Shown: positions 11,801 through 62,625, counted from the stretch's first letter. The stretch: DNA of 64,000 nucleotides from Owenia fusiformis (GCA_903813345.2 CAIIXF020000001.1:26412001-26476000), one strand, 5' to 3'. The notes: a model not told the origin generated them from the letters alone. Numbers and translations: made by a program.

Positions 11801-14800
11801 CAAAAATAATTCAAACATTTATGCAATTCCGGCTTTATTTTATTTTACTAGAGAGATGTCAGACCTATAAATAAAGGCATATGGATGCATAAATTCATCT
11901 ATAATTCAGGATAAACTGAGATTGAATAATGTTTTAAACATTTAAAAATTTAACTCTTTAAAGACTGGGTCAGGACCCACGTACGTGGGTACGAGGGTAC
12001 GTGGGTAGGAGGTTTTTTATACAAAGCCAATTCATCATAATTATGACAATACAGAAAGTGAACATTCTCCCACAAATTACGTTTTTATTGGAATGTGTTC
12101 TTGAATAATTACCCACAATGCAATACTCCAAGAGAACATCTTGATACCTCTTATTCTTATTGGTCTTTTTTGTTTACTTTAACATGATATTGAATATATG
12201 TTATGCTTCAATCATATTGAAAATTGATTTTTACTCAAAATAATACTAAAACATATACATTTTATCTAATACTTTTTGAAATATTACCTTAAAAGGGAAG
12301 CATGGCATTGCTCATTTTGAAGGTCTCATGTTATTACACAGAGTTGCATACCCTTCTAATTGAAAGCCCATGGTTAAACATGGAATCACTTTTATTCAAT
12401 AATCACAAATCAACCTTATGTTTTATTCCACGTCGTTCACACATTTCTTGCATCTTTATGTTGATATCAAAATTAAGTGTTACTAGGCGGGATTATGACC
12501 TATGGGATACGGACCATTGGGATTTGGTCCAATGGAATTGGGACGGTTGAGATTCAGACCATTGGGATTCAGACCAATAGAATTCAGATAATTGGGAATA
12601 GGACCGACCATTGGAATTCTGACAATTGGGATTCAGACACTTGGGATTTAGACCAATCGGGATTTGGATGATTGGGGTGACCTCATGTCTGTTTACCAGT
12701 TTCTGATCGGTCCTTTGACAACCCATAGGTTTCTTCAAATCTCTAGCCAATAACTTGGCTAAACATCATTTGAGGTTTCCTTAAGTGTCTATCTAACCAA
12801 TAACTTGCCTAAACATCATAAATTGTTTATTTTTCAGTGCCAAAGGTCTTGTTTTGTCTTAGTTCTAATTTAAGCTATCTAGATTTGATATGCTTAGAAA
12901 ATCTTATATAAGAAAATCAATGCAAGTTGGGAATGTCAAACATATGGGCAGCTGTTAAAGTTCTGGCTTGTGTAAAAATATTGGTGGCTGGGTTACTTGT
13001 TGACATGAAAGCTTGGTACTTAACATTTCTGGTAGGGTAAATGGGTCCATGCTATTCTGCAATATCCAAAAAGGACAAGAGGGGGATTAACCCCAGAGTT
13101 CAAAGATGACATACGCTTATAATGTAAACCTGTATTCAATGTCATGCAATAGAAATCATAAACAGAAAATCTTCTTTTGAGTAAAAACGTTCAACATTTT
13201 GGAAAAAATGTTTTCATATGGGTCCCTATTCATAATTTTTTGAATTGTTCGATTTGATTAATATCACGGCCACTTGAAAGAAAACATACTGTTTTTTTAT
13301 AAAAACACTGTATTTGTGACCAGAAAGTTCTCCTGACTCTGATTGAAGCTAAATGGTGCAGGGGTTCTTGGTCAATATGTCTGCTTGATAATGTATATGG
13401 ATATTATGGAGAAAAATTGAACATTTTATATGTATACTGTACATTTACGTTGAAATATTTTTTGTAGGGGTTCAGAACTGACAGATATTAGTATCCTGAA
13501 AGAAACACCCAATGTTGAAGTTGTTAGTCTCAGGTATGTAATGTTATAGTGTACATGTTCATGTGATAAGTACAGACAATTAGACACATCACTCACTAAT
13601 GATACATTTATTGAATTCAAATCATTTGCAATATGGCATTCGAGATACACATACTTTCTTCAGAGGAGCAAAATTTAAGTTCTTACATAATTGGCTGCTT
13701 GGCTCAAGGCATGTGCCCAGTTTGCTGATGCTTATGTATTCGTGTCACTTGACAGGGGTCGATATATCAGCAATACTATACCCATATGATAAGTCGGTCT
13801 CAATATATAATATCTAAGGTACGTAAGATATTATATAAGTAATTATAATGAAACATCACTGCATCTTTTAATTCTTGTTAAATCTTTCAGTGTGAACCAC
13901 ATTTCCTCACTAGCGGACCTAGCATCCTGCAAGAATCTTCAGGAGCTTTACATAAGAAGAAATGACATTAAAAACTTAGCAGAGATATGTTATCTGAAAA
14001 ATCTGCCAAAATTGCGAATTTTATGGTTGGCTGATAATCCATGTGCAGTGGGGGATAGGTACAGAATGACAGTCTTGAAAACACTACCTAACTTACAGAA
14101 ATTTGATAATGTGTGTAAGTACATAGAAACATCGTCGTGTTGATTTTTAATTTATCCATTAAATTAAATGTGTTACTTGCGGTTGATCTAGTATTTTTCA
14201 AATCCTTTTTGAAATCTTGCTGATTTTCATTTAAGAAAATTTGTAATCTGCAGGCATTTGAATACCATTTTGGCATCAGTTTGTTTCATTTTGGTGCCAA
14301 ACGGGCCTGAACTTTCAAGCAGCATCAGAATTTTCATGATAAACAGTTGTTTAACATGTCTTATGTCACCCCCAGAAGTGCTGCAGATTATTATAGTCTC
14401 CAGCTTTTTTTGTGGATGATGTTCTGCGGTTGATGTTTGGTGTCTGTAACAAATGGCAGGTTGTGACATTTTACATGTTATGCCTTGTATTTGTCTCAGA
14501 CTATGTTGATATCATATTTTCAGTGGTCCAACAAGAAGAAATAAATGATGCTATTGAACAAGGCCAAGAGCTGACACCACCCAAAGGATGCTCAAGTTCC
14601 AGTTCTGCCCCTTCTAGACCCAAAACACCAAAGAAAACTGAAAAATCATTTATAAAACTTGAAGATGACACTAGTACTTTGTCATTAGAGGAAACTAAGT
14701 AAGTACAAAATGCCTGTTACAAAGTCATCAGGTTGTAGCCAGGGTCAAAAATTTGGCAAGGCAAATAAAAATAGGTGAGGCAAAGGAGTGCTATCGATAT

Positions 14801-16296
14801 GGTGAACTTTTTTAACACCTGTTTTTCTTTAACCAGTCATCAAAACATTCTGAAAATTTTACACATTGTCAATTTAATGGTCATCTTTTGGATGGTAACA
14901 TATATTTATATACTTTTCTCTATATTGTTTTAGAAAACACATCAGACACTTCTTTTGTTCTATATAATAACATATATATAGAGATTATCCTATATGAGGT
15001 TCAGGATATTGGGATCATCCCGAGGCAAATATAATATATTTGCCCGAGGGCCACAGGTCCCGAGGGAAAATATATTATATTGGCCGAGGGATAATCCCAA
15101 TATCCTGAACCGACTATAGGATAATATGTTTATCCCATACCAATCTTGGTCATCTGGTTCACATTGTTCAATCGTGGAAATATTTTAGAATATTCATGTG
15201 CAGTTTTGTTTTCTTGGCCGTGGGCGGATTTTCCGGTTCTCTCAAATATTCCCACATTTATTTTATTGATTTTTTGAATGATTAAGTGGATGCTCCTTCC
15301 CTTTTTTAAACCATCAAACAGATCCCGCTTGTCTGTGTTTTCTCCATTGTCGTTTACAGTCATTACGCGAACGTTACAAATTATGAACAAATATGCGAGC
15401 GGCGATTATGACGTAGCATATCTGCCCGCTCGGAGCGGGACATAAAGCTATATCTGCCCGCTGATGAAAATATAAGTTTTAATAAACTGGCTTTATGTAC
15501 CTGTAACACGTCCAAGTATGGGATAAATATATATATATATCAGTTCACCATATCGATACCTATCCTTTAGGCTTATACTCCTGCATTTGGACTTTACTTC
15601 CAGTTTTAGTTGAAAAACGTCTGATTAGATATACATTTATTTCTGTAGAATTTTGGTGAGGCACCCCACATGCCTCATGTCTGCCTATGACCATGATTGA
15701 TATCATATATTCAAGCTTAAAAACTGTACTATGCATTAATGTATTCAATATATAAAGAACTAAATGCTTTATGTCCTTTAATGTTGCAGTAAGATCAGGG
15801 AGAATCTCGGCCTGAAGGCCTTACCAGCTGAGAAAGTGACCCCACAGAAGACACGGCACACTGGGGGTGCTAAAGCTAGGGTATGTTGTCTTTATATCAA
15901 ACATAATACTTCATACAATAGCACAAAGTTTTCAGAATTTTTTGTATAGTGATGTTTATATTCAATTTTACTTTTGATTTGTCTCGTGAGTCGTGAATTA
16001 TCATTTCAGCTGCCATAATACTTCATTGCTTTCAAAGATCATTGTATTCTGTGATCATTTATTCATTTCATCTGTAAAAATTGCAATTGCACACTATTTC
16101 ACTATGTAATAGATACAATAGTAAAGTTTGACAAGGTTGAATAACATTATTGATTGTCAAATTATTAAATTGTTTCTCATTTTGTTTTCAGAATGCAAAC
16201 ATACTTCAGGCTGTATTATCTTTGGTGAAAGAACTTGATGCAGACAGCCTAGAAACCATAGGGAATGCTGTAAAAAACAGACTAGAATCATTCTGA
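8892..16296 (+). CDS. CFAP410: Cilia- and flagella-associated protein 410 (C21orf2-like LRR protein)
   Basis: [37 protein letters not shown]...[11 protein letters not shown]...[11 protein letters not shown]...[18 protein letters not shown]-terminal helix [32 protein letters not shown]. Exons 8892-8971, 13468-13533, 13891-14114, 14524-14698, 15790-15880, 16192-16296. Confidence 0.93.
9415..10170. mobile_element. Long-TIR palindromic element with TTAA TSD (Kolobok-like GG termini)
   Basis: TTAA|GGTCTCATGGAAGTTAACAGGAA ... TTCCTGTTAACTTCCATGAGACC|TTAA; arms of about 330 bp nearly perfectly inverted around a spacer of about 95 bp. Confidence 0.85.
10464..12028. mobile_element. Non-autonomous Mutator-like element (MULE)
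   Basis: Long TIRs starting GGCTTTGTATAAAAAACCTCCTACCCACGTACCCTCG, with similarity extending about 250-300 bp. Exact 9-bp TSD AATTCATCA at 10455-10463 and 12029-12037. Confidence 0.9.
14985..15526. mobile_element. Four-arm hairpin element, family 1 (full copy)
   Basis: TTATCCTATA...TATAGGATAA hairpin (14985-15124), spacer TATGT, then TTATCCCATAC...GTATGGGATAA. Sits in (TA)n. Second copy at 52638. Confidence 0.85.
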
Positions 16297-17910
16297 TAAT
16301 CCTAATTCTTGAGAATTCATAATAAACTGTGTCATAAGACAACACAACAATTAAACACTATTCAGGACAGTGTTATCCAGTGAAGGTTGAGGAACAATGG
16401 GCATTTAAATCCTCTCAAGAGTGTTGTTTTATATGAGCTTGATTTGGATTGAAGTGTAAGCCTTTTATTGAGTGCTTGACAAAGAGTTTTGGGCATAAGC
16501 AGTTTGATTGGACTGAATATTAATTGAGGTTGTATTTTAGATAAAAGGCTTCATTTCTCCAATTCAACAATAAATTGATTGATTATCCATACAGCTAAAC
16601 AAATGGTGCTTTGGGTTTGAGCATTAAGTAAATTTCACTCAGCACTATGAACATGTTTATTGTCTATTCACTGTTTAGCAACATTTTCTCTCACTTTTGA
16701 ACCTAGAAATGGGATTTCTGGGTAGAATGTATTATTTGAGGTTTATCAGTTTGAGACTTCTTTATTTTGATAATTGAATTAATATTTGATTGGGCATTAT
16801 GTAAAAAATATGCATTTCCATATGCTCATGACTGAAAACATCAGGATACTACCTATTGCCTGCTGCGAATAGACCCCTACTCTGGTGCGGTAAACAAGTA
16901 ACCATTATAAAGTATAGAGATGAGTTGTCAGGTCTATGTATGCATGCAAATCAATTGTTATCATTGTACTGTACAAGTGATATGATGTCACATTCCGTCC
17001 AAGCAGTTGTATATAGCCTACTGTTGTCTAAACATCTTTTGCAGATGACATATGGCAATTTTATTTGAGTATAAATATAAATAAACTATCTATCTAAAGA
17101 CTTTGTTATCATTTACTTTCCAATGGTTTGTCATTGGAAGGTTGTGTAAAATCAACACTTATTCTACAGAATTACAAATACTGTATATCTTTTTCACGAC
17201 TTTATGTATTTATTAAATGTGTTAACAATATATCAAGATATAAAATAAATATTAAAATAAACAAGTTCAAGTATTTTTATACATTTACCATTTCATACAT
17301 TTACCTAATATCAGTCTAGTGCACAAATTTTGCATTGAATTTTTCAGTTCAAAACAATAGCTTTTTTCAAGTTTATCAAAGAGCTCGTCTCAAACAACTC
17401 TTATTTATAACAGCCTGCAATTGGCACCATTAACAGACTTTGACACAAAGCTTCTTTCCTGAAAATATCAAGACCTGAAAAAGTAAGCAGCATGTTAAGT
17501 GCAAATTACAGTGTGCACCCGACCTGTCAAAATTTATAACTAATAATTCCTTACACAAAAGATTCATGACAAAGTTTGAACATGCAAGGTGCAGGTTTAA
17601 GATTTATTTTCAGTTTTGGTTCAGAAATCGGCACTGTCACCCTTTAATGAAATAAGCCCGGATCATTTCAGTATAAATATCACAAATCTTGTTTCTCATT
17701 GTGTGCTGGCTACATATTGGAGCTTGACATGAGACAATTCTCCAAACAGCCATATTCATGAAATAAATCTTGTTGAATATCAATCAAATTCAATGAATCA
17801 AATATTGCAATACATGTACTTTTGAGAAACAAGTACCAGTGTAAACTTTCAGTAAGAAAAGCTGTGTTGACCGCATCTGGTAACTTCACTAAAACTTCCA
17901 TTTTGCTGTG

Positions 17911-20900
17911 TCAAGTTGAAATAACTGGCATAAAGTACTGTAATGAAACATCCTCGTGTAAAACAAAGAAATGGATAATCCTATTATCTACAATATTACA
18001 AATCACTTTCTGGGGATTCACTTGTTGACCCGACAAAAATTGTGAAAATTTTCTAATGTCAATTCTGGCTTGAATGAACTGGTTACTGTCCGTCTGTATG
18101 TTCCTGTTTTGTGACTGATCTTGGTCTTTGCCTGGAAGAAAGAACATAATTATTATAACATTATAGCATCCTGCCAGAGCCTGTGCTTCATCTTTTTTTG
18201 CAAATTGGTTTATTACAATTTTTGAATGCTTTCAAAATATAGAATTGATATTATGAGGTTATATAATGGTTCTTTCTGTATATCGTGTTTATACTCGAGT
18301 GAGTATATGATATATTCACAAGTGAGCGTAGCGAACGAGTGAATATATTATATTCTCACGAGAGTATAAAATGCACGATATACAGAATGAACCATTATAT
18401 AATCTTATTATGCCACTCTAAGTTCAATTACAGTTGATTTGAACACAATCATAACAATTAGAAACCATAAAAATATCCCATAGCCAACTCAATAATACTG
18501 ATGTTGATCTCGAACCATTTATGACGTCACTTGATTCTAGCAAATCATGCCGAACCATTTATGACGTCACTTGATTCTAGGAAATCATGAAAATTTCCAT
18601 GATTTTTTTTATTCAACACACGTGTTCAATAGTTCCCAGAATGCACTTCTACAGTGGTATACGCTGGAGTGTATACGGAGGAGTTGTATACGATGACGAT
18701 ATACTACTCTCCACTGTATATCGTTGTTATAGACCCATGTTATACAACTGTAATCGGACTTAGAGTGGTATAAACTTTTTTATTTCATTCATAAATATTA
18801 AATAATGACCCAATATTGGGCAATAATAGATATTGATTGTGCTCTAACTTATTGAGGTAGATATACTGTAGAACATTTTTGAGTGACATTATCCCATGGC
18901 GAATTATAACCACTTGTCAAACAGACAATATTAGAGTGACTAAACCTTCCAGATGACCTACCCCTACACCCAAAAGTAAAATACCTGCAGCAATCGTTAA
19001 CATTCACTGTAATCCAATGATGCATTCATTTCTCTAAAAAATTCCAAGCTTGAGAAGAAATCTATTATGAGGTGAGAGGTTTGTAAGGTTCGTAAGTCTA
19101 AATACGGTGTAAACTACTGGTTGTTATAAATTTGAGGTATTTAGTATCACAGTAAAAGGTTGAGTCACTTTAACATTGATCAAGTTTCTCTTACTCCAAT
19201 CTGGATTTGTAAGATCTTTGAAATGTGTGGAGACACTGGCCATATCTGTTTCTATCTTCAGTGTCATCTCTCCATTCTGATTTGCTCTGATTACCTGCAT
19301 AATTACAAAAATTCAGTCAGCAAATATTTATTCTGAGATTATATAACTGAAATTCAATAAACAGCAATTTAAAACCAACAGGTTAAAATACAGTACAAAT
19401 ATGGGCCGTATCCAGTTCTGCTAAATTACATTAGCTCTCCAGAAGTGCATGACATTTTGTCCACCTTTGTGATTCTTCTTGCGAAAGGAATTATGTGAGG
19501 GTGACACATATTATTTGATTTTCGTACAACCCGCATATTTCTAGTTGACATAATCTTTTAAAAATTAGAAAAGCTTATTCGAAGATTTATGAGTTTTTAA
19601 AAATTGGAAAAGCTTACCACAAAATTACTAAGATTCTTCATGCGATCTACAACATGCCTTAGAGTCTTTAGATGAGGCATGTAGATGCTCACCTACAATG
19701 TGAGAAATGAACATATACTGTAAAGATATCATGTAATAAAAGGCCCAACGGACGGACGGACCAACGGACGGACAGACGCCTGGTCGATCCCATAGACTCA
19801 CTGTGTGAGCCAATAATGAGATTCAAGCAGAGGCCATTCAGTGGGGTTCAGGGGGGCTGCACGAATTATTTGTTTTATCTGTGCAGACTTCCCCCCTGTA
19901 CTTTTATTCCTCACAGAAAGGCCAGTCGGTTCAGGATACCGGAACTATCTATAGCAACACATACATTCACAAAGCACTGTTACTTGTTCAATTTTAATGG
20001 CATACCTTATTTGATAAAACGTTAAGATTTAAAAATTATAGTAGATGTATTCTAATATGTTTTCTTAATAAAGGTAAGATACAATATTATATGAAGGTGA
20101 TCTGATGACAAAGGATATCTGAAATAAAGCAGGTAACTGCATTATTAATACATAACAGAGTTTGAACTTTGAAACACAGCTGCCTGATTGCCAATGGTAA
20201 TCACTTTTCACTCTGGGCAATGAACTTGGAAAATGAAAATATTAAATTGTGACAATAATATTTTGAACCTTAGTCGTCGAACTCCAACTGCACATATACA
20301 GTGAGTGTATGTATGTCAGTATGTGTGTTTGTGATATATACTCTACTACTCACATCAAAATCAGGCATTTCTGGCTCTTCAAAATCATCCCACAGCCTCC
20401 TTGGAATCACATTTACAGGAATATCGTGGGTAACAAATCTAGAATGATTGCTCAGTGATGGCTAAAAACAGATATCATGTCATTAAATACTAACAAAAGA
20501 TGCATAGGTTTTATCAGATGTTGTTTTTTAAAGATAACTTTTAAAGGAGTCACAAAGAAAGCAGCCAACTTTTTGCCTCATTCCTAACAAGCATTTTTAT
20601 AAAAATCTGAGGCAGAGAAATAATAGCTTTTTAAAACAAATTACTTGTATATTTTCCTACAAATGTGGAAATAAACATTTTTATTTTGAAGAATTGTCTT
20701 AATGTTCATCTAACTCTACAATTTCTCAATCGCAAATGACTTGACTATCTGATAAAGACAAAATGGACCTTTTCTGAAATATGATATGTGGAATAGTAAA
20801 GAGCACATTAGATGGTCCATTGAAATTATTGTTTGCAATTTATATACACAATTGGCCAGCTGAAAATCTGAAAAACTTATAGTATATATCATCGATGCTG

Positions 20901-22859
20901 CCAGGAGAGGCATGGCATTGTTGTTTTTCCAGATTAGCACAGAATTTCCCTTTATTTTAAGGGGTTTCACCCCAAAAATGGCACAAATCCATAAAATAAT
21001 GAGATTGCCAGCTAAAGCATGCTTAGCTTACGTAAATAGCACCAAATAATACCAAATTTTTCACTACAGTACTCACCAATTCCACTTCAACTGTAAGGCA
21101 AGGTGTATGTTTCTTTGTAAGTTTAATCTTCACAGATTTAGCCTGTTGTCCAGTTTTCAAGGCTCTCAGTAAATTATCAGGAATTACATCTAAGTAGATC
21201 TCATTGAACTCCTCACTAAGGCCCTCAATCTGATACTCATTGAAGAAATGTCCCTAAAGTATAGACAATAGACATATGTGTATGATTTCAAGAATACCTG
21301 TGTATCCTATCCTCCTTTTGCCGCACAATTCAATATCAAGCTAATTTATCTAAAAATTCCAAAATATACCTGAGTTAATTCACACCAAATACTAATGCCT
21401 CCATTGGCGACTCTTTCAGAGAGGATGAAGTAAATCTTGTTGCTTGTAAGCCTCAAGGTGCATCCTTTTACAAGCTTTGCGATTGTGCTCACCACTCCTA
21501 AAATCATGAGACAATAAGCATGATAAGAAACTTATAGCAAACAATAATCCACTCCCCTACCCATCTTATTAAATTTATATAATTTGGAAATTGAAATGTC
21601 TATTTAATTTCCCTGCGTGGCAATTAGTTTCTGGAATTAACAAACAATTGTTATTGTTGAGAAGGGCTTCTCACAGCTGGGGACCAAAATGCTGCTAAAA
21701 CAAGGGACTCTTTACAATAAATCAATGCACTTTTGCAATTTTGTTTTGCTTTCAATGGAGCAATTTTGAAGAAAAATGGTGCACATAGGCGTAGGGCTAT
21801 ATTTTGAGTTGGTACGCACACTCGGGGATGCCTGATTGCGTGGTCGAAGGCCGTGCATCGCGGGGGGGGAATCTTTTTCAAGTATGTTGTTTGATGGAAT
21901 CTTAGCATTTTTATCAACTTTAAATGTTGACAATGGTAAACATACAGATACAGTAGCAAGCATCAATAAATTCGCAAATAAATTAATGCATTTTAACACA
22001 TTTTTAATTTTTTCAAATACATTTGGTATGCCTGTGCATATTTTGCGTAATAGGCGCTACGCCCATGGTGACGCACAATCCTTTGCTTTCAAACATCTGG
22101 TACGTCAAAAATTCAAAATAAAGTTCGAAGTTAGTACCACATGAGAAAGCAGCACATAACAAAACGTTTGGAGATAAACAAGAGGGGGGAAAGCCCCAGA
22201 GCTTTAGCGATGACTGACTTGTTACATCTCTTGCGTACCACCTTTGATTGCACAAATTCGTCGTCGTGATGTTTTAATCGATGTAAGCATACTCCCCCGG
22301 GCATACTCCTTACATCTTTCTTTAATTTGATATGAAATAACAAGCTACGAAATTGGTTAACATGCCAGGAATTAACATAATATTATTCGAAAGCTATATT
22401 AGAAAATTTCCAATCCGCCATTTTTGTTTATCGATTTGGACCAATCAGAGGTGTACGTAATCGCAATACAGGTTTACAATTTAAGCGTACGTCATCTTTG
22501 AACTCTGGGGTTAATCCCCCTGAAGATAAACTAGGGTTCTGCGTACATAAAAATATTTCTGCATTTCGGTTGGTCAAACAAATTGTTGACTGTGATTTCA
22601 ACCTAAATCCAATTACAGTACAACAAAAAGATATTATCAAGCAATGTCACAGACATATTTGTAGGGAAGTTGACAAAGTGTAAGATGTTATGTTGATAAT
22701 AGAATTTTGGGACACACCAAAAATTAATTTTGATGGGCGATAATTGAGTAATTTGCATTAAATGTTAGCGTAGTCTACAATCAATCGATACATAAATCAT
22801 TTCTTACTTGTAAAATGTTGAATACATCCTATGTCTACAAGTTTTGCTCTGAAACGCAT
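17911..22859 (-). CDS. HUS1: Checkpoint clamp (9-1-1) subunit HUS1
   Basis: [26 protein letters not shown]...WCELTQ...[25 protein letters not shown]...[25 protein letters not shown]...[10 protein letters not shown]. Exons 22808-22859, 21370-21497, ~21077-21253, 20354-~20461, 19618-19692, 19195-19294, 17911-18131. Confidence 0.95.
18259..18773. mobile_element. Four-arm hairpin element, family 2
   Basis: TTATATAATGGTTC...GAACCATTATATAA hairpin (18259-18402), spacer TCTTA, then TTATGCCACTCTAAG...CTTAGAGTGGTATAA. Internal ~41-bp tandem duplication containing ATGACGTCA. Confidence 0.8.
19745..19815 (+). mobile_element. 3' end of a DINE-1/HINE-like (Helentron-associated) element
   Basis: (GACG/GACA)n microsatellite, then CCTGGTCGATCCCATAG, then stem-loop GACTCACTGTGTGAGCC and an A-rich end. 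Near-identical to 57010-57093. Confidence 0.6.
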
Positions 22860-23132
22860 GATGCACCATCAGGAAAAGTGAAAAAACAAGAGAACTCTAC
22901 AAATCAAATCAAATGTTTTTGATTTTCCCAGATCTCGCAAAAGGCCCTCGCAAAACCTCGCAAGTGTTAACGAGAGTTGACATACATTTAACTGATGCTT
23001 TCAGTCTCCTTCAGAGTTAATTCGTTAATTTTTACTTATGTAAGAACTTTGCCAATCTAAAATGTTCGAAAGTTGTGAAGCTTTTATCGACTATGTTTAA
23101 TGCCAAAGATTTCACCCACGTCTGATTCGAAA

Positions 23133-23205
23133 GACCCTGTGGCCTAATGGATAAGGCGCTAGCCTCCGGAGCTAGAGATTGTGGGTTCGAGTCCCACCAG
23201 GGTCG
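23133..23205 (+). tRNA. tRNA-Arg (anticodon CCG)
   Basis: GACCCTG acceptor stem pairs with CAGGGTC; D arm TGGCCTAATGGATAAGGC; anticodon stem CTAGC-CT CCG GA-GCTAG; T loop GGTTCGAGTCC; T-run terminator just downstream. Confidence 0.95.
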
Positions 23206-23328
23206 AACCTTTATTTTTATACAACCATTTTATGTGCTAAAAGTATTATGAAATCTTGTCTTCAACATACTATTTCGAGAATGAGAATGCATGGGAGTTA
23301 GAGACAGACCACCGACTTTTGGGTCCAA

Positions 23329-24362
23329 AATCCGGTGACAGGTCACTCAACCCCAATTCAACTCAACCAGTAAAACTCAACCCCAAGCCAACTCAACACC
23401 AGTAAAAAATCTTTCATGTTAGTCTCAGGTAAAACTCAACCCTAAGTCAACTCAACCCCTGTAAAACTCAAGCCCAAGTCAACTCAACCGCCCCAGTGAA
23501 ACTCAACCTCAAGTCATCTCAGGGAAGAATGAAAAACTTTTTCATGAATTTTGATGCATAATTAACCCCTGATGAGAGTCAAAATAAGTATCCTAACATT
23601 AACAGAAAACAAATAATCATTATCATAGAAAAAACATCAATGGCAACATGTTTGACATATATAGTAGAAATAACTTAAAGACCCATGAAGCCGAATTAAA
23701 AAGAAAATCATATTTTTTAAATATATTTTAGGATTTACATTTTTCAAACTTATTATGATTATCAAACTTAAACTGATTATCCAGATAAACACCAATTCAC
23801 TTATCAAGAAGTATATAATTGTATACATTATTCATTTAGTATTTGCACTTGATTTTTGTACTCTCAGAAGAAGGGTAAGATATTGAGGTTTAATAATATG
23901 TGTGATTGAGTTGATTTTTCAGACAAGTACAATTTTCAATATTTTCTAAGTCGATATCCGGACTCGTCATTCCCAGACTCATCCTTGGCCATAATATAAA
24001 AGTTTGTTGAATAAGAAAAAGTTTTAATAATTTTGTATCAATTTTTGATTTATTTTCCAAGACCGGCTTTGAATGTCCTAAGCTCCAAAATCTCCAGAAT
24101 TGTCAACATGGTCCTACTTGAGGATTAATACTGTGAAACTAATACAGTTGTTTTAACTTTTGGAATGTTATAAGTTTGTTTTGCTAGATTTTTATAGTAA
24201 ATAAGCTAGAGAACTAAATACGTTGCAAAAATATTCAAATGAATAGGGCTGAGTTTTACTTGTGTTGAGTTTTACAGGGTTCAAGTTTTACTGGGGTTGA
24301 GTTGACTTGGGGTTGAGTTTCACTGGGTTGGAGTTGACTTGGGGTTGAGATGTCATCGGATT
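23329..24362. mobile_element. Foldback-type element with inverted arrays of ACTCAACCCC repeats
   Basis: AATCCGGTGACA..(AACTCAACCCCA)n at ~23330-23520 mirrored by (TGGGGTTGAGTT)n..TGTCATCGGATT at ~24245-24362. No clear TSD. Confidence 0.7.
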
Positions 24363-27300
24363 GCTTCAAAATCAAAATCCGTAGTCGATGCTAGGTTGGT
24401 TATCGGAGGGGTCGGTCCTTTTGTCATACATCTCATTAATTTAGCATAGGGCGGCCGTGTTTAATATGGTACTGCACTAGTAATTTAAAGTTTCTGACTT
24501 CAATCAAATTAATTGGCCAGTTTTCAATGTACGTACACGTTGACATTCTTCAGCACAAGTGTTTTGACAGTGATATATCATTTTAATTAGTGAGTAATCA
24601 TGTGAAAATCACCAACATTATTTAAGTCATATCGCGTAGTATATCTTGATTGGCTAGGCTACTGATGCAGAACTAAACATAATGTGTGTTCTCCCTAAGC
24701 TGAACACGTATATACAATTTGTAGAACACCACTCTATCACCACGTAAAAGAATGATGCATGCTAATTACATGCTAATTACAATTTCATCATCCCTCATTA
24801 AAAGGGGCTTAAAACGTTCAGACTGAGACTAGCCTCATTATTAGACTATTACGCCTATTACATAACGCACAGCACTTTTAAGTAAGACGTCAACATTTTT
24901 CACAGAATAGGAATATAACGTACAGTTTTACGTTATGATCTGAAATAATTTGTCACACATTCAGCACACCATTGGAAAGTTTATCTTGCGGCATTTGATC
25001 TTTTAGATACTAAAATCAAATAAAAACGTTACTACTGAGGAATTAAGTAACGCATGACGAAATTAAGTGGAACTTATCAGTCGGCGTCACTCCCCTCCAA
25101 ATGTTTGGCAACCTTAACCCCTAACTCCTAGATCTCTAAAGTCAAAATTTTTGAAGAAACCTCCCCCGTTGACATAACATATGATAAAATTATTTCAAAA
25201 ATTTCTTTGAAGCTCTGCAACTTAAATCCTCACCACCCTTTTCAACGCATGCTCTATGGCTACCTGTGATCGGAAAGGTCAGTCTTTTACACTTTTGAAC
25301 ATACATATTTAAAAGATGATTGTAATAAATTTTCTTGATTACAACAATATCGTACTTCAAATTCAGACTGAATTGTTCTTTTACATTCATTTTGAATTAT
25401 AATATATACAGTGTTCCTCTTAGACAGGTTTTACTGTAAAACTATTTCTGACCGCAAACTTATTAGAAGTAAAGGAAGGGGTACTTTGAAAAACGACAAC
25501 TGTGTAGGACTTTTGTACCTTTTTCAATAAATTCGCATTGAATCATAAACGACACCATAAACACGCAAGTTGCTATACAGTGCACATTCGAGGTAAAATA
25601 TGGTACCGTCACAGTATTATAAATATGGGGAAACAATATTTTGTGACAATTTTATTTTTATTAGTTTTTTTTATATTGCTTTATATTGTGACAAAGATTT
25701 TAACATAGTGATAGTTTAAATGAAAAAAATCATGAGTTAATATTGAGATTGCAAATGGTAAAAGCATGGCATGGGCAGACAGTGGTGATAATAATGGTTT
25801 TAAGTGAATGATAAATGACCAAATCTGCTCTAACGTTCCAATACACCGTTGGAAAGCTGAGAGAGTCATATTAAAGGATCCGACCTCCATTTGAATTTTT
25901 GGTGATTGCAAAAATAGATATTAGGGAGGTTCAGTTACACGTTCAAAGAGAACCTGTACATGAGCCAGGACCATAATTCTACACGTTCACCTACAAGTTT
26001 TTTTTTAAAAATGTGTATCTTAGCCTCCCTTTTAACATTTTGAACTCCAATTGGTGAAGTGAACAAATCAATCATGCTTTTTCACTGAAAATGTTTTGAC
26101 AATCGGAATTGCATTGGAATCACTCCATATTAGATATGATTACTACTAGTGTGGAAATAGGACTGAACAGAGTTTTGAACAAAACACTCATGCATATAAT
26201 GATGTTATCCCATAATACTGGCCAAGTTTAACATTATTGAGGTCATACAACAATACAAGGACAATTTAATAGGTAAGAACAGTTTAAATGTTGCACTACA
26301 TGCATTTCTTAGTTACTGTGCTACTTTTTAATTCTTTCACCACAATAGTATTACAAACATCAAACAAAAATATTATTTTTGTATAAATGATGTATTTTTT
26401 ACAGGGATTTTACAAGTTACATATTCAATGCATAAATTCTCGGTTTTTCCCATGTCACCATGACCAAAGTCGATTATGCAAATAATAACTGTAATAGTTC
26501 TAAAATATTATATTTCCTCCCAAGAAAAGCTTTTGACCATTACCACTGATATAACTACAATGTAACTAAATGTATTCATTACAAATTATGTATAAAATAA
26601 TAGTTTAAAATATTAGCAGTATGATTTAGTGCAACCATATTCTAATATACCAGTATTCAGATATTAGAAAATGCTCTTTTAACATCATGCATATAATATA
26701 CAGTATGTTCCGACAGGCCATACAATGTACAAAGAATATCAATTAAGAAAAGATACAAATAAATCTCTTAGAATCGAGCTGGAAACAAAAAAAACGTGAC
26801 ATATTCTAATTGAATACAAACATTTTGTATGCATAACAATGGACTTGGAATACTTGGATGAAATGTACATACAGAATGGATTCAATGTACAAGGCCTACA
26901 TAAGCAATGTATAAGTCCATATCCAATGTATTGGCCAGTGCGATGCATTCACAATTGATCCAGGCTATTACACAACAAATGCATTAGTCCGTGACTGGTG
27001 TATTGGCCACTGGTTATTTTATAACGAACCTGTCAATTATTTCAGCTTGAATGGGAAAGTAACATTTATAATCAATGTGAAGCACCTCATTATAAATACA
27101 AATTGAAATAGCCATTTGCTTATTCATGTACAATTAACTTGGTTTCAAATATTTATCATAATAGACTATGCAAGACTATGACAATTTTGGGATAGCACTA
27201 CCAACTGCTATGCATGTATTGCAATGCTTGTTTGGTTGCTTGTAAGTATGTAATGAATATTAAAAATATATATATAGGCCGATTGTGATAGTATATTTTG

Positions 27301-27408
27301 TTAGAACTATCTACAGAACTGATACAAGTTTGTATGTTGGATATCAGTGTCTATTTGAGTACATCAATGTCAGTATGTGTATATCGTGTGAATGTATAAT
27401 CCCTGCCT

Positions 27409-30400
27409 TCAACCGTTTATCACACACTTTACAAATTCTGAAAGTACAAATTCAATAATCAGTTAAGTTAGCATTTAGAAGTAAAATTAATTAAAAACAA
27501 ATAATTAAAAACAAAAAAACTTTGTCTTTTGCCCACTTCACCCAATGGTCTATTTATAATATTTGCCGCTCTTATTGTACAAGAAAGTTATCCTTAATTT
27601 AAGGTTGTAACAGAACAAAAATAATTAAATATTATACAGCTAAATAAAACAGAGTTTCATGAAGCGGAAATTTTTTATAATGAATTTCATTTTAAGGTCA
27701 AATGCATCAAAAAGCCTATTATATCTAGAGGTATTCTACATAAACATTGGTTAATGCACACAACAAAGTAAACCGAAACCTTTCAATTAAAGATAGAATC
27801 AAAAATTATACATAGGATATCAATATTTTTTTGATAATTGTTAGTTTTGAGGTTTTCTAATACACTGTACTTCCATTTACGCTTATTCATTTTAAACAGC
27901 ATACTTTACCTTCATAATTTATATTGCCCTGTGCATCTTCATGTCCAGTAAGTAAATGTTCACATTCTTCATCTGTCAGTTTCTCGCCTATAAAGAAATA
28001 CATGGTTACGACCAGCTATAAATAAACAGTATACATCTGTCACTTAATAATATAACCCATTGTATTTTGATAATATAACCCATTAAGGTGCTGTGTACAA
28101 CATGAAGTACAAATAAAATATTGACATTAAAAATGAAATAAAAATATATGTCTTATTATCATAAATTGCATGTCATAAATTGCAAGTTTTAACTCCATTT
28201 GGCAAAGATAATCAGTAAATTTAACTCAAGAAAAGTAGGAGAATAATAAGAGAAGAAAAATAAGGTATCCAAATAATTTACAACAACGTCTATATTCTTC
28301 AGGCACTTATAGGCTACTGGGTTTTAGTTACCGCTCCTTTAAGCCCATCGAAACGTAGCAAGTAGGTTTAATATTTGGATAAGTCAAGCATAAATTATCT
28401 AGATATCATTCACAACTATCCAGGGGGAAGAAACTTCATAAAGTTAAGAATTCGTGAAGTCCATTGTTCTCTAACTGTGACGTCATTATATCTGTGACGA
28501 AGTCACAGTTGAATTCACTGGTCACTCTACTTATTCCACTGTACATCAGTTAATGTCATCATGATCTTTCCATGTATACATGTTTATGAATATTGCGTTA
28601 TTTTTATTATGGGATCTGCCAGTTTAATATTTGTATTACAACAGTTGTTTGGGTAATCTTTGAACTTAGAGTAATATTTTGTAGTACTAACCATTTAATT
28701 TCTTATATTTTAGCTTCAGATTGAAGTAGTTTTTATGTGTTACCAAATGGGATAAGATTTTTAACCAATTAAATGACAGAATTCGTGTTAAGATAAAAAT
28801 GACAGACAATGATATATGATGAGAAACTTTGCAATGTTTTCTTTCAATGTTTATATGTTTTCATAATTGTTGGCAGAACAGTGAAAAATACAAGTTTTTT
28901 ATAAATAAAGTAAAAACTCATTAGCCTTAAAGATCTTGAACATAACTAACCAAAACCTATATATTAGTGTATAAACTTTATAAATGTATATATCTATATA
29001 ATCTGTATCACATTACATTAATAACTGTGTACTTTTTAGTATGTAAATGTACATAAAAATACTTGTTTCGGACTTTAATGAACTAATAGGTTAAATGAGA
29101 TAATTGGATTGTACATCCAGAGTTCACGGGACGAGATTCAGAGGTTTTGTCTAGGCATTCCTTTCCCACCAAATTCTGCCAAATTCTCAAACTTTCAGTA
29201 AACATCCAAGATTTGTGGGCAGAAAATCATCACTATTCCTTATTGACTTTCTATAAAATTAAACATTCATTTTTCGGCCAATTTTAGTTAATGAGATTTC
29301 TTCATATTTTATTGGATAAGACCTCTTATTTCGGCTCTGCCCACCTCAAAATTAACATTATAAAAGAGGCATTTTTAGCATTGAAACCTCAGATTCTCGT
29401 TACGTGAACTCGGACCGAGCAACAACTGTAAGTAACAACTTGAATTTATATTTTGGACTTAAACTTTTTCTATAATAAATTAATATTTTAAATTACATTT
29501 GGTTTCATGTTTTGTAAAAGATAGAGAGGCTCAACTTCGCCACATATCCATGGTAACAACAATTGATTTACGAATTCGTAACTTTATGAAGTTTCTGTTA
29601 ATGACCCCCAGATGAACATATTTCATAAGAAAAATAAGGATTTCATACCTAAAGAACACAAGAGATGTCTCAATTCAGCTACACTGATGAAACCATTTTG
29701 TTCTTTGTCAAACACTTTGAAACCCTCAATGAAATCTGTTTCAGTCGGGACATCTTTGCTTTTGCTCAGAGTTTGGAAGATTGGCAGGAATTGTTCGAAA
29801 CTGATTCTGTAATCTGAAAAGTAAAAAATAGAAAGTGAACTTTCTCAGTACAAATGTACTAACATTTGCAATTGAAAAATCATAAAATGTACTTCTACAT
29901 GTACTTAATTTGGCACTTCTTATTTTCGACGGATTTGCTGTTTTGAACAGTTGGTGGACTTCTAATATTACAATGTACTAAAATTATCGGGAAATTTGGC
30001 AGCTACTTAAATTGACACTTTAACAGTTTGGCGGATCCACCAAATTAAAACGGCTGCCAAATTAAGAAGAAGTACAGTAGTTGAAATGTCAAATGAAACA
30101 CAGTATTCTATAAGCTTCAATCTATTTTCTCTCACTATAGCCAGATGGAGCTTTTTTGAACAGAAAATCAGAAACAAATTCTTAACATTTCAATCCCCTT
30201 TACTTTGGCACCATTTTGTAGTATTCAAGTAGATTATTTAAACTTCCCTAAATAGATGATAAAACCACAATGGTAGCCAAAATGAGTTGAGTTGATCATA
30301 CACCTCTAATACATATAGTCCCATGCCTAAGCTATAATTCCACCGAGCATACTCACAACTATGATGTCATGAGCTTGAATCAGTAAATAAATTATTAATT

Positions 30401-32398
30401 TCTAACTGAATGTAATTTTGGAAGCAATGGATAACAGTTTAGTATATTCTCAATCAATGTTAACTAAAGCTCTAAAATCATGCACTATAATCGTGAAACC
30501 AGGACAGTAAATTTATTTTGTAACAAAAATTATGAACTGAAACTGCAACATCAATTTAATTTACATTTTTAGCTATTTTGCAAAAGTAAATCATACACTC
30601 AAGCATTATTTTGTATTAAAACTCTAAAATGAAAATGTACACAATCAATTGCTGTGTTAAATCTGGTCCATTTATTGATCAAATATATTCAAAACCAGTC
30701 ACATGATAGCATAAGTTCACACAATATTAATTATTCAATAACAGTCACACAATAACACAATCACCAGGATCATCAGGTATTGGCTTGAAGACCCGTTTAC
30801 TGCTCCCTTGTAAATAAAACAACACAAAATACTCTTTGTGTATAACTTTATTCCCGTAGCTTGTACTATTCCATCACTTAAGCATGATAAAGAGGGATGA
30901 ATCAGAATGCTTTCTTACTGATTATAATACTTGTCCATTTCATCTCTTTAATTATAAGTTATTTTAATTTGGTGTGTTCTTAATTCACATTATCTGTAAA
31001 AGTGGCCAATTAAAATCTTTGCCTAAAACCAATGTATCATATTGTCCTATCATATGTTAATAGGACAATAAGATACATACGTTTTCTCAAAATCTGCAAA
31101 ACTAAGTATCTTTAAAATGAATGCTCTAAAAGAGATATATTCGCAATATTAAATATGACTTAATTAAACTAACTTATGATTCCATTAATAAGACCAAATA
31201 GAGCTTTTAAAAAGGCAACAAGTCAGATGACTTTACAAAAATAAAAAAAATAAAAAAAATCCAAAATTATGACAATAATTTAAAAGCTACCAAAAATTCA
31301 TCTCTACCCTTTGTTACACCCAATGTACAATATGACATTTACCTGGGTCTTGTCCATAACCACATTTCTTCACCTCTGCTTCAGTAGGATTGAGACCCAA
31401 TGATCGCAGGACATCACCAAGAGATGAGGCAAATATCTTCCCATCTCCCCTATTGTCAAACAGGGAAAATGTTTCTTGAAAGTCTGAAAATGAAGACAGA
31501 TTTAAGATTATCAGTCGTTTACAGATGTTCTTTATCCTTGTCAGTGAAATACCTTCGCATGTGTTTATAATGCAGGTATTGAACAAGTAATGTTATACTG
31601 TCCTTGTATAAGCATTCTATCGTATAGTAGACAATTCGATACTTCTACCATAAATGTAAGATAATGTTGGCTTTCTAAATGTTAATCAAGCACTTTTACA
31701 AACCCAAGCTTCAACAACTAATTGTTCCCTATGTTCAACAGTAACAAAGGTATACAGTAGAATTAATTTGAATGGTGCTTCTCCCAAATCTATGAGCATA
31801 CATGCATGGACTTTCTATTGAAAGCCCATGATACATGTAATTTCCTGACAAGATCTGGACAAGTTACAATTAAAGCTGTAAATCAAGGGGTTCCAAATTG
31901 GAAAATCTGATATGAAAATGATACGAAATGTAAACAGCATATTCAATGGAATGTCCTATTCATCAATGATTCAGTCAAGAGGAAATAAAGTACATCTTGA
32001 CATTTGAATTGAAGGGTTATTTGGGGTCAAATATTTATATGAGAAATGAAGTGAACTATAGTCTATATGCCCATACACATCATTTATCAATTTCCCAAGC
32101 TTATATTGAATTAGTGTAGACAGTCAAATTAACAGATATGGATTATAACAGGTTTTTGTTTTCAGAAGGTGTGGTTCAAATCCTAAAAATATTTGATGAA
32201 AATTTTCAACTGACATTCAAACTTCAAACCCAGTTTTATACCTTATAACACAAAATTTTCTTACCTGCTATTTGATCGTCGGCGAATCGAGACTACAATA
32301 AACAAGAAAAATATAGTTAAATTTATATAAATGGGTGATTTCAACGTTTAAATCGATAATAATTGAGAGAAATTTTCATTTCCTGGTTCACTCACCAT
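27409..32398 (-). CDS. Myosin essential light chain, non-muscle type (MYL6/Mlc-c-like), 147 aa
   Basis: [27 protein letters not shown]...[17 protein letters not shown]...[36 protein letters not shown]...[15 protein letters not shown]. Exons 32396-32398 (ATG only), 32265-32292, 31343-31483, 29649-29813, 27910-27987, 27409-27437; total 444 nt. Confidence 0.93.
29116..29414. mobile_element. Small MITE
   Basis: GAGTTCACGGGACGAGATTCAGAGGTTT is inverted to AAACCTCAGATTCTCGTTACGTGAACTC. Confidence 0.55.
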
Positions 32399-32477
32399 TT
32401 TTAGCTATTTCCGGTGAGATGCATGATGGGATAGAGTCGCTCTTTAATCTTTGGACTCGGAGGTAAAAAAGTAAAAA

Positions 32478-35400
32478 ATGTCACAAAATATTCACCCAGA
32501 TTTGCAAAAGGAGCGCAATGGGAGCTCCTTCGACAAAGAGAGACTCATAAACATAATAGATGGAGGGAAGGATAAGACAGAGAGACGCAGGGAAATAGGT
32601 AATAGAATTTTCTATTGTAAATTATGAATAAAAAAGCCTCAAAGGCAAAGTTGGAAAATTGGATAATTTCTTCAGTTCAAGTTCATTATCAATGTTTGTA
32701 ATTGTATTGAGTTGTTTGCATAATAATTATATCAGTTTTATGTCATGATCATAAGTCCATCCATATAACTCAGTGGTAGCGCATGTACCTCTTACGCAAT
32801 AGGTCCCGGATTCGATCCCCGGTTTGCTAGGTTATCACGTGCCAGGACTATGTTCTAGTCTATATATATTATAAAGGGATAACTTCAGGGTGTTTGACTG
32901 AGTGGTCCACAACTCGTACACTCGTAATGTTGGATATACCCAAAAGGTATTGCTCACCTTATTGGTGGTAAACAAAATACAATACAATACCATGGTATAT
33001 ATGATGGTCACTTTTTTTCGAAGGCAGAACTCTTTGTTCATTGTATCATATTTTGACCATTCATATTCGGCAAGTCGTCAAGGCAACTAGCCTTTAGTAA
33101 GTGTAAGTCATCATTAGATGCAATTGTAAATTGAATTAATGATTGATCATAATCCTTGAGAACATATATCCTACAGCGCTTCGACGACATATTTTTTATA
33201 ATCTATTCAATGTAAATATTGTTTCCAATAATGAATCAAGAAGTAACCTTACTCCAAGTCACTCATTTGTATTTTTCAGTGAGATTTTCACTAGATTATC
33301 TTGTTGAATTACTAAGCACCTTGATGTAACAATATTACACCTTGAAAGTCTCATTGATATAGAAATGCATATGATTCTAAACAGATATAAAGTACCTGTA
33401 CTGGACCAGCAACATTCTTAGTAAAATGCACCAACATTTTAGAGACAAATATTTTTAGACATTTGTAAACTTAAAATAGTATCACATATTAGGACTATAA
33501 CATCCTCTTTTGTAAAGTGTTACACCATGCCTATTTTTGGATCATAGCTTATGCGCCTGAGTATATTCCCAGAAATGTTAGGGTATTCTTCAACTTCAAG
33601 AATTTAAAAAGGTTTGAATTGTGGGGTTATCAAATGTTCTGTATGTCAAAATTCCCAATCAATTTGTCTCTGATCAAATATACATAGAGGTTCTTATATG
33701 AGTACCTGTGCAAGATCGTCCATTCTTGATGAGCTTTGATAATTCTTCTTTATCGAGTCGAAGACGAGATAAAGAAACATTATCAAAGCGAGTCAAGAAT
33801 GGACGATCTTGCACAGGTACGAGTACAAGAAAGTTTTTCTCATATGACTCTGTATTATGCCATATTTTCACCATTTTATCATAAAACTTAGTGAAAAATA
33901 ACTTCAAATTAATTGAACTTCATCTTTCAATTGTTATGACGTCATAACAATATTGAAGAAAATACATAGATACACGTGGCAACATAGCTCCATTGTTATG
34001 ACGTCACAGCTTAGTTTTGTAGAATTAGCATGGATACTCATAGCAACGGTGTGTCCGTTGCCATGTTGATGATGTTTATAGACCAGTGATGTCACAAGTA
34101 AATCTCATCTTGCACGTGTGACTTTTTAGGATGAAAGATGGCAATATCTTGCATGGGGTAAAGATGGCTGTATCTTTGTTAGTCATATGAGAAACTTCAA
34201 TCATGTGTATGCATACTGTAGAACAAGTAAAACAATCTCAGCTTTCTAATTCCTGCCCTGTCAACCCTCACGCATTAGGCGTGATTGTCACGCATTTGCT
34301 GGAAAAATAGAAATCATACATCAATAACGCAAATGCGAGTAGGTAGTTACCAGTTTCACCACCAGGTGGCTCGCTCGGGTCAGATAGCATGGCGGGTATA
34401 GCAGAAAGTTTCCTTTAACTTAAATTACATAGGTTTTAGTGGTTCAATTTTCATATAGCCCGTATGTATCAAATAGTTATGCAAATTAAAGTATGTCCAG
34501 TAAAAGAAAATGTTAGATGTCCAATACAAGGAAAGATATTTCACTTTTTGTGATTTTATAATATGGGGTCTATGGAGAATCAACCCGAGCTAGAAGTCAC
34601 ATTTTCAAAAAGTATTAAATTTTCAAAGTTGATAAACAATTTTCGAAACCATATTTTTAGATGTATTGTTACATGCAGATTTCAAATATGACATCACTTT
34701 GACTGAATTTTAAATATTTAATGACGTAAATCAAGATCATTTCTACTCGCATCTAGTCTATTTAGCATGTATGATCAAATATCACGCAAATCACGCATTT
34801 TGTTGAAATTTTTAAAAATCGTTTTTTGTGAAATGCCGACACGGTAAAATACCGAACGGCGAAAAAAGTGAACGCATTCCGTTCGGTCTTTGCACGTGAT
34901 TGCCGTTTATGTCACGCATTTGGTACAAAATATGTGTATATATCACGCATTTGTTTCGATCATATGTCACTCATGTTAGATGGTCCCAAGTTGACAGCCC
35001 TGTAATTCTGATCATAGCTTGCAAATCATATTATATACTGTACGTGTATGGATCTCTTCTTGTTTAGATAAGTATCCAAAATGGCACATAAGAAAATGTT
35101 GGATAATTCATGACAAGATGCTCAACATGTTTAGTTCCAGTTCTTCTTTAATAACACCCTGGGCATTAAACCAAGAGTTACTTCCTGGGATGATATTCCA
35201 AAATATGGGAAATTGTACAAAGGTATAATTCTTATTTATAGAATTTTTTTTGAAGTTTTTTATCAAAGACTGTATACACCATGATTAACCCCACACCACT
35301 TACATGTACCTCGTCTGATTTTATTTGCCATGTCAAGGTTTTTAATGCATGAGTTGAGGAAACAAGAAATAACCATAATATTATTATTACTTATTTAAAT

Positions 35401-60899: not shown

Positions 60900-62625
60900 T
60901 CAAATTTTTATCTAGGTCAAAGGTCAAGAACTAGGTCAAATCTTGCATTTTCAACATTCTTTCAATTATCTTCGTCGTTATTTATTGAAACAACTTTGTC
61001 TTTTTTTCATCATGTAGCTTAGAAACAGCTCTTTCAAAGATATGCCATCAGATTTTTAATTACTCGTACCGATTTTGAGATATGGCGTCCGGAAAGTAGG
61101 TCAGAACAAAAAGTTCTCCAAATTCAACATGTGAGCTATGAAATAAGTGTAGAATGATCTCAGGAACCTGAATCTGCAAACCAAATTTCGATCCGACATC
61201 TAGTACGGAAGTTTTGGTGTTTTGAAAGCTCAAAAATCGCTAAATTTGGTGCCCATGTTAAGTCAATGGGAAAAAAGATTTTTTTGAAGTGAAAAATACA
61301 AAATATAGACTGAGTTCAGCTAAATATAATGAAAGCTTTTAAAAGAAGGGGACCTCATAAGCCATCTAGCTTCAAAATTTGGACACCAAAATGCCTTGGT
61401 CAAAATCTAGGTCAAATTCAAAGTTTTTCCTTATTTTTGCGATTCTGACACTACACTTTAATTATATTCTTCGAAATTGTGTATACATGTAGCCAAGAGT
61501 GTACTAATAGTGTTAGCCTTTTGCAATCAGGAAGTATTTTGACCCACTTTTGAGATATGGTGTCCCAAAAGTAGGTCAAAATAAAAAAATCTTCAAATTT
61601 AACGTATAAGTTATGAATTAGGGGTAGAATTTTATCAGGAATCCGAATCTGCAAACCAAATTTTGATTTGACCTCCTGTTCGGAAGTTATGGCGTTTTGA
61701 AAGCTCAAAAATAGCTAAATTTGCTGCCCCATATTATGTCAATGGGAAAAAAGATTTTTTGAAGTGTAAAATACGAGATATAGACTGAGTACAGCTTAAT
61801 ATAATGAAAGCCTATTAAAGAAGGGGACCTCGAAGGCTACTTAGCTCCAAAATTTGGACACCAAAATGCCTAGGTCAAAATTTAGGTCAAATTTATAGTT
61901 TTCCCTTATTTTTGCGATTCTGACACTATATATAAATGATTTGCTTTAAAATTTTGTATACAGATAGCAAAGAGTATGCTAATAGTGTTAGCGTTTTGCC
62001 GTCAAAAAGTAGTATTTTGACCCAATTTTGAGATATGGTGTCTGAAAAGTAGGCCAAAATAAAAAGTTTTCCAAATTTAACGTATGAGTTATGAATTAAG
62101 GGTAGAATCTTCTCAGGAATCCAGATCTGCCAACCAAATTTAGATCCGACTACTTGTTCTGAAGTTATGGCATTTTGAAATCTCAAAAATCGCTAAATTT
62201 GGTGCCCCATGTTAAATCAATAGGACCGAATAATTTTTTGAAGTGAAAAAATACAAGATATACATGTAGAATGAGTACAGCTAAACATAATGAAAGCCCA
62301 TAGAAGAAGGGGACCTTAAAAGCTACTTTCCTTCAAAATTTGGACACCAAAATACCTAGCTCAAAATCTAGGTCAAATTCATAGTTTTTTCTTATTTTGC
62401 GATTCTGACACTACACTATGATATTCTCCGAAATTGTGTATACTTGTAGCAAAGAGTGTGCTAATAATGTTAACATTTTGCCGTAAAGTTTTTTGACCCA
62501 CTTTTGAGATATGGTGTCCGAAATGTAGGTCAAAAAAAAAAGTTCTCCAAATTTAACGTATGAGTTATGAATTAGGGGTAGAATTTCCTCAGGAATCCGG
62601 ATCTGAAATTAAAATTGCAATCCGA
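60900..62625 (+). repeat. Tandem array of ~476-bp units (about 3.5 copies)
   Basis: TTGAGATATGG(C/T)GTC recurs at about 61075, 61550, 62028 and 62503; CAAAATCTAGGTCAAATT recurs with the same period. Confidence 0.9.

Follow-up and report, generated by a model that had tools for sequence, protein, structure and literature searches.

Here, we describe three families of mobile elements in a 64-kb stretch of DNA from the annelid Owenia fusiformis (GCA_903813345.2, CAIIXF020000001.1:26412001-26476000; hereafter, the window). The elements, E1 (14985-15526), E2 (18259-18773) and E3 (33691-34193), share a layout in which a conserved tail, an imperfect hairpin of about 140 nt, a spacer of exactly 5 nt and a body bounded by short inverted repeats follow each other on the plus strand, and their hairpins carry a strand-specific signature of G-A mismatches. 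On balance, E1 to E3 and a deleted fourth copy are probably non-autonomous members of three families of the Helitron2/Helentron type (HLE2; HINE/DINE-1-like). The layout itself is the published HLE2 type; what is new is the structural variant with a giant hairpin and G-A sites. Invertebrates harbour Helitron2/Helentron elements in abundance, yet the recognition of the element ends is little understood. Three dissimilar families that keep the geometry of repeat, 5 nt, long hairpin and tail together with strand-specific G-A mismatches represent a natural experiment on which features are selected.

Layout, ends and copies of the three families

The analysis is based on the window and on Logan contigs from four public runs (X1, X2, X3 and X8). 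The window is AT-rich animal DNA (31-37% G+C) and carries an amiloride-sensitive sodium-channel open reading frame (ORF), a reverse-transcriptase fragment and acyl-CoA-oxidase exons. The hairpins of E1 (14985-15124), E2 (18259-18402) and E3 (33691-33831) are 140, 144 and 141 nt long, respectively, with arms that are 80-84% complementary. The palindromes are imperfect and are calculated to fold as single-stranded DNA at -47.9 and -47.5 kcal/mol (E1, plus and minus strand), -45.7 and -42.8 kcal/mol (E2) and -53.3 and -52.6 kcal/mol (E3), while shuffled controls fold at -9.6 to -12.2 kcal/mol. The spacers, read directly on the plus strand, are tatgt (15125-15129), tctta (18403-18407) and agttt (33832-33836). 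The bodies that follow, also given here for the plus strand, are 397 bp (15130-15526), 366 bp (18408-18773) and 357 bp (33837-34193) long and are enclosed by short inverted repeats at 15130-15140 and 15516-15526 in E1 (11 of 11 letters), 18408-18436 and 18745-18773 in E2 (10 of 11; 29 nt at 90%) and 33837-33849 and 34181-34193 in E3 (11 of 11; 13-14 nt perfect). The arm tips within each element share the tetramer TTAT or TTCT. Moreover, counted by eye, the hairpin base resembles the body repeat at 9 of 10 letters in E1 and 11 of 13 in E3. The coordinates, hairpin and body sizes, 5-nt spacers and shared arm tips had all been proposed in a first-pass annotation of the window, and each of them was reproduced here.

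The body repeats were evaluated by comparing the first 11 nt at offset 5 with the following 200-700 nt, using a first-order Markov null with 2000 resamples per element. A score of at least 10 of 11 is reached in 0.75-1.05% of the resamples per element. The same test revealed no comparable inverted repeat on the opposite side of the three hairpins. Among the six palindromes of at least 100 nt in the window, only the E1, E2 and E3 hairpins have an inverted-repeat partner beside them. Seven other palindromes in the window, which served for comparison (at 4872, 7988, 9411, 31025, 43058, 46988 and 61535), have flanking repeats of at most 10 of 11 letters over 11 offsets and two sides, i.e., within chance. 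The description of the three elements as sequence-unrelated holds insofar as BLAST gives no cross-family match at E ≤ 1e-3; it does not hold for the tail motif, the CGAG motifs and the mismatch positions, which are common to the families.

As also anticipated in the first-pass annotation, every body contains the motif ATGACGT. Six of the nine matches in the window lie inside the three bodies, which account for 1.75% of the window; all six are on the plus strand with TT directly before them, and the bodies are enriched in TTATGACGT, which in E1 is found at 15406-15414. At 33939-33945, an additional match arises when the palindromic TGACGTCA core is read on the minus strand, and the remaining sites at 22489, 28480 and 34721 sit in unrelated repeats. 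TTATGACGTCA is present twice in a 40-bp tandem duplication in the E2 body (18511-18589) and at 33934-33944 and 33996-34006 in the E3 body. We take TTATGACGT(C)A to contain a core similar to the cAMP response element (CRE). Just past the ATGACGTAGC motif in E1, at 15417/15418, most family-1 copies have about 12 extra letters, which complete a palindrome and which the window copy has lost; they give rise to loose ends in 50-59 X1 contigs among the matches listed.

Several observations bear on whether hairpin and body move together. A second family-1 copy had been reported at 52638. A copy is indeed present there; however, it is an internal-deletion derivative in which positions 1-78 of E1 are joined to positions 473-542. 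Its match to E1 spans 52638-52781 with the deletion junction in a shared CCCG, and in the derivative as a whole (52627-52787, plus strand), the tail and the tail-side arm of the hairpin, which reaches the hairpin centre, are followed by the final 70 bp of the body. Because this deletion keeps both outer ends of the composite, it argues that hairpin and body are one mobile unit. In E2, the depth of contig words reaches 321,639 at hairpin position 18369 and 368,196 at 18705, towards the far body end, as opposed to 17,769-80,139 in the centre. Thus, the element ends are kept while the centre varies, and the similar depth of the hairpin and the far body end therefore supports a single unit. None of the top-ranked loose ends among the matches listed falls at a hairpin/body junction, which lends weak support to the same conclusion.

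The element does not end at the tip of the hairpin, as had been supposed: the similarity of E1 and the deleted copy extends 11-12 nt beyond the hairpin on the left and 6 nt beyond the body on the right. On the left, they agree at 11 of 12 positions (ATA[T/A]ATAGAGA; ATATATAGAGA at 14974-14984 on the plus strand of E1). On the right, both have ATATAT (15527-15532, plus strand), which could be an element leader or a TA-rich target, and the outer repeat is at most 6 nt from the element end. Loose ends were taken from the best-supported rows of the run contigs, among which is the left end of family 1 and not its right end. Specifically, 78 X1 contigs among the matches listed start matching at 14974, and their flanks agree only at 0.38. 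Because these contigs start at 14974 with unlike flanks, the family-1 end is placed about 11 nt outside the hairpin, near 14973/14974. A conserved tail thus extends 7-12 nt beyond the hairpin, ATAGAGR-like on the plus strand: ATAGAGA in E1, TATGAGG in E2 (18252-18258) and ATAGAGG in E3 (33684-33690, 6 of 7 letters matching the E1 tail). It is present in all three families, two of which (1 and 2) have a second copy that corroborates it; in family 2, this copy is preceded in an X2 contig by the same seven letters as E2. The tail is a feature beyond the first-pass description. That description had also noted the lack of a target-site duplication, and reading of the flanks and spacers revealed none flanking hairpin, body or entire element; no combination of end offsets gives a duplication of at least 2 nt in all four insertions. 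A clean empty site for E1 was sought via the flanking repeat and none was obtained.

All three families are very abundant in the four public runs. In X1, the summed word depth is 740,219 in the E1 bin, 157,825 in the E2 bin and 136,344 in the E3 bin compared to ∼50-190 in unique bins; such sums are not copy numbers but indicate very abundant families. Element depth is likewise high in X2, X3 and X8. Family 1 is also variable in structure: among the matches listed, contigs contain copies in which 15210-15498, 15227-15418 or 15245-15425 of the body is skipped, and in other copies the hairpin centre (15010-15070) is replaced by 15 letters. When metagenomes were scanned with 18 nt of the E1 stem, 57 loci with a single match each were obtained; their BLAST similarity was at most 40 nt, which is the level of chance and adds no further copies.

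E1 sits inside another inverted-repeat element, the arms of which (14782-14808 and 15542-15568) are 27 nt long and 89% complementary. This enclosing element is very high-copy, with 132 X1 contigs leaving the window sequence at 14961 among the matches listed; other copies of it continue past 14961 with sequence that is missing from the window.

G-A mismatches in the hairpins

Mismatches were compared by aligning the left arm of each palindrome with the reverse-complemented right arm and counting sites of at least two letters. In 8 of the 11 multi-nucleotide mismatch sites of the E1, E2 and E3 hairpins, GA is opposite GA, both read on the plus strand; the exceptions are one AA/GA, one TC/AC and one 3-nt indel. 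By contrast, GA/GA is found in none of the 20 such sites of the seven other palindromes (exact one-sided probability ∼2e-5). Each hairpin has two or three GA/GA sites, located in the arms around positions 11, 40 and 64, i.e., at 11-13, 38-39 and 62-63 in E1, at 42-43 and 69-70 in E2 (with the AA/GA site at 65-66) and at 9-11, 40-42 and 65-66 in E3. The asymmetry is also evident from the motif CGAG, which occurs 11 times on the plus strand of the three hairpins while CTCG occurs once; in the whole window, the two occur 60 and 56 times. Neither GA/GA sites nor CGAG occur in the seven other palindromes. This mismatch signature is a feature that the first-pass annotation did not note.

Tandem G-A pairs are stable in a pyrimidine-GA-purine context. 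The symmetry of the palindromes is broken at fixed places, apparently so that the plus strand can form tandem G-A pairs, and the minus strand would carry T-C/C-T at the same places. Because the GA/GA sites are always on the plus strand of both arms, we infer that the hairpin acts as a single strand, namely the plus strand, and that it would be recognised by its shape. A "rabbit-ear" fold with side hairpins was also considered and rejected: only the left arm of E1 folds better than its shuffles (-12.1 versus -5.0, SD 2.2), and the other five arms do not.

If the pattern reflects recognition, it would predict the strand and the structure that are read by the transposase. The 140-nt stem-loop, the G-A sites and the tail might even constitute a new kind of single-strand recognition module, belonging either to an undescribed Helitron-like lineage or to a different hairpin-reading transposase. 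We consider this unlikely; such a module, if real, would reveal from sequence which DNA strand is transferred.

Relation to Helitron2/Helentron elements and alternative explanations

The suggestion that the elements are non-autonomous mobile elements of one architectural class, made in the first-pass annotation, is supported. Read on the minus strand, each element starts with a short leader and a 5' terminal inverted repeat (TTAT.../TTCT...). These are followed by a body of ∼350 bp containing short duplications and then, in this order, by a 3' inverted repeat, 5 nt, the stem-loop and a tail of 7-12 nt (YCTC(T)AT...). We suggest that a RepHel (HUH) transposase encoded elsewhere would nick one strand at the element ends, that the end of the unit would be marked in the displaced single strand by the paired inverted repeats and the stem-loop next to them, and that the strand would then be circularised and pasted without target duplication.

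This order corresponds to what the available portions of the literature describe, and all comparisons with published elements made here are limited to those portions. HLE2 elements have terminal inverted repeats of 8-16 nt, of which the 5' one is 0-4 nt from the end while the 3' one is subterminal and directly upstream of the hairpin (PMC3627910). HINEs have the same layout, often with central tandem repeats, and no duplication (PMC4067079, PMC7492417, PMC5148889). In agreement with HLE2, E1 to E3 have short asymmetric terminal inverted repeats, one near the terminus and the other subterminal, a stem-loop beside one of them (5 nt after it in all three families) that is followed by a short tail, and no target duplication; very high copy number and many deletion derivatives also fit, and HLE2 is described as common in invertebrates. 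The short tandem repeats in the body, as exemplified by the 40-bp duplication in E2, are as in HINEs. Finally, E2 resembles DINE-1 and Cg_HINE in having, by eye, an opposite-sense copy of the terminal-repeat motif (9 of 11 letters) about 20 nt inside its end, near 18741-18751.

In E1 to E3, unlike in HLE2, the hairpin base repeats the terminal repeat, the GA/GA sites are conserved and no microsatellite was seen. The published descriptions, in their available portions, mention neither the G-A signature nor a conserved tail. A full-text literature search returned no paper joining G-A mismatches with rolling-circle transposons and no Helitron paper on a long hairpin or palindrome, although supplementary tables may list longer palindromes.

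Other observations weigh against an HLE2 assignment. The stem-loop of ∼140 nt and a 3' repeat ∼155 nt from the end contrast with published HLE2 and HINE elements, for which the portions available give palindromes of 5-10 bp, right flanks of ∼60 bp and a 3' repeat 20-60 nt from the end (PMC4067079, PMC7492417, PMC5148889, PMC3627910). The 5' hairpin or complementary repeat of Helitron2 and DINE-1 is seen in E2 only and is not evident in E1 and E3. None of the window ORFs of at least 130 amino acids is RepHel-like (four of four checked). With regard to the insertion between T and T described for HLE2, a T precedes the TTAT/TTCT body end on the minus strand in all four insertions, and the base flanking the tail end differs between copies and is not consistently T. 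The element ends themselves rest on few copies. Moreover, if the plus strand acts, the stem-loop would be at the 5' side, which is the rarer HLE2-reverse layout. There, the left inverted repeat is preceded by the stem-loop, and the HLE2-reverse, proto-Helentron and FoHeli3-5 elements are described from fungi and oomycetes; their other end has no stem-loop (PMC5148889, available portion). E1 to E3 resemble them in having a hairpin on one side only, which fits if the plus strand acts as the G-A asymmetry suggests. They differ in their terminal sequences and in the distance from hairpin to repeat, which is exactly 5 nt throughout E1 to E3 and varies in the described elements.

The first-pass annotation had favoured a different explanation, in which the elements are non-autonomous and Crypton-like and are moved by a tyrosine recombinase, with the half-sites around the 5-nt spacer as the crossover site. 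The inverted half-sites around a short asymmetric spacer and the lack of a target duplication, in particular one of the cut-and-paste type, are what this explanation would lead one to expect. However, the core sites of tyrosine recombinases have spacers of 6-8 bp, and the spacers in E1 to E3 are shorter than this and differ between families. At the presumed site, a subterminal repeat adjoins the base of a stem-loop, and this base resembles the repeat; because this order matches the HLE2 layout, the "recombinase-like junction" is explained as a repeat beside a stem-loop. Neither the tail nor the G-A mismatches are accounted for by a recombinase. Furthermore, according to the available portion of PMC3212892, Cryptons are devoid of terminal inverted repeats and of a long palindrome, the fungal ones having direct repeats of 4-6 bp and the animal ones and the non-autonomous derivatives that exist having no terminal repeats, in contrast to E1 to E3 with their inverted repeats and 140-nt palindrome. 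Altogether, we do not retain tyrosine-recombinase mobilisation and consider it extremely improbable. A pair of cut-and-paste MITEs (miniature transposable elements that have inverted repeats), one a foldback and the other the body, that share terminal repeats and one DDE transposase and tend to land side by side would explain why all four arm tips of an element share TTAT or TTCT and why the hairpin base of E1 and E3 is close to the body repeat. Ordinary foldback MITEs do occur in the window, and E1 to E3 are similarly small, AT-rich, palindromic and abundant. However, ordinary MITEs have symmetric ends and a fixed duplication, and E1 to E3 have a conserved tail on one side only, no duplication around either module or the whole, and a two-module unit whose spacer measures exactly 5 nt across three unrelated families. 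In addition, what the deletion derivative retains are the outermost ends of the whole composite, not those of a single module, and the GA/GA asymmetry would have no role in a double-strand cut-and-paste reaction. We therefore regard paired MITEs as improbable. Elements of the kind described here would be prone to mis-annotation as MITE pairs or recombinase sites.

More weight, although still well short of being likely, is given to a separate hairpin-dependent class outside the Helitron-like elements, in which a Y1 HUH protein (IS200/IS605, REP/RAYT), a Replitron-type Rep or an unknown protein would read the G-A hairpin and the tail. The strand-asymmetric GA/GA sites and the tail at the foot of the hairpin suggest an enzyme that recognises a single strand by its shape. 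In length, the hairpin exceeds the Helitron-like values in the available published descriptions several-fold, and the search of the Helitron literature described above, with the same reservation about supplementary tables, fits such a class as well. On the other hand, no candidate enzyme is known, and a body enclosed by inverted repeats is characteristic of HLE2 and unexpected for ends of the IS200/IS605 type (PMC3627910, available portion). Replitrons have direct terminal repeats and come from plants, algae and protists, as far as the available portion of PMC10288648 goes; direct terminal repeats were sought in all three families of the window and none is consistent, with E1 having only ATATAT in a TA-rich site. 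The hairpins recall the origins of HUH replicons in a general manner. In parvovirus telomeres and IS200/IS605 ends, an HUH nuclease reads imperfect hairpins with mismatched bubbles and neighbouring single-stranded DNA. Yet there is no sequence relation to these, and E1 to E3 differ from them in having one hairpin only together with inverted repeats. The last explanation is a host or RNA role, in which the CRE-like site TGACGTCA would drive transcripts that fold into a long hairpin RNA, e.g., as a source of small RNAs. In its favour, TTATGACGT is enriched and points the same way in every body, tandem G-A pairs occur as a motif in RNA as well, and run X3, which has intron-like skips, covers the elements. 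However, the sole match of Rfam and tRNA scans is the tRNA-Arg at 23133, with no RNA family in the elements, and contig depth shows neither the strand nor the ends of an RNA. The high copy number shows mobile DNA, as do the deletion derivatives and the variety of flanks. An RNA role would be compatible with HLE2 elements; as an explanation of the layout, we consider it very unlikely.

Other features of the window

At 40887-41395, a 169-bp unit is repeated 3.0 times with 95% identity, representing a tandemly triplicated exon in an acyl-CoA oxidase-like (ACOX-like) gene. Each unit comprises 34 codons that match the acyl-CoA oxidase C-alpha1 domain (E=7.7e-11) and ∼67 nt of intron-like sequence. 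The triplication could be a recent duplication, provide alternative exons or stem from an assembly artefact. An intron-less ORF of 571 codons at 44360-46075 belongs to the amiloride-sensitive sodium channel family (Pfam ASC, E=7.8e-51); it has no close named relative, the best of which is from the annelid Owenia fusiformis with 29% identity.

Contigs that skip parts of the window were observed in two further regions. In an inverted-repeat element at 28420-29610, the internal 1056 bp (28487-29544) are skipped in 14, 7, 5 and 3 contigs of the four runs, corresponding to a shorter family form or a presence/absence variant. X3 contigs skip 27437-27910, 27986-29648, 29813-31343 and 31483-32265, all of which are bounded by CT and AC; these are spliced transcripts of a minus-strand gene, and X3 thus behaves like an RNA run.

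Among the remaining repeats, a foldback element of 764 bp at 9411-10174 has arms that are 88% complementary and TTAA at both ends. The tRNA-Arg (CCG) at 23133-23205 adjoins 16/32-bp tandem repeats at 23345-23521, which have an inverted counterpart at 24246-24349. Finally, a 475-bp tandem repeat at 61073-62605 (3.2 copies, 83% identity) is followed by a 12-bp minisatellite at 62741-62948.

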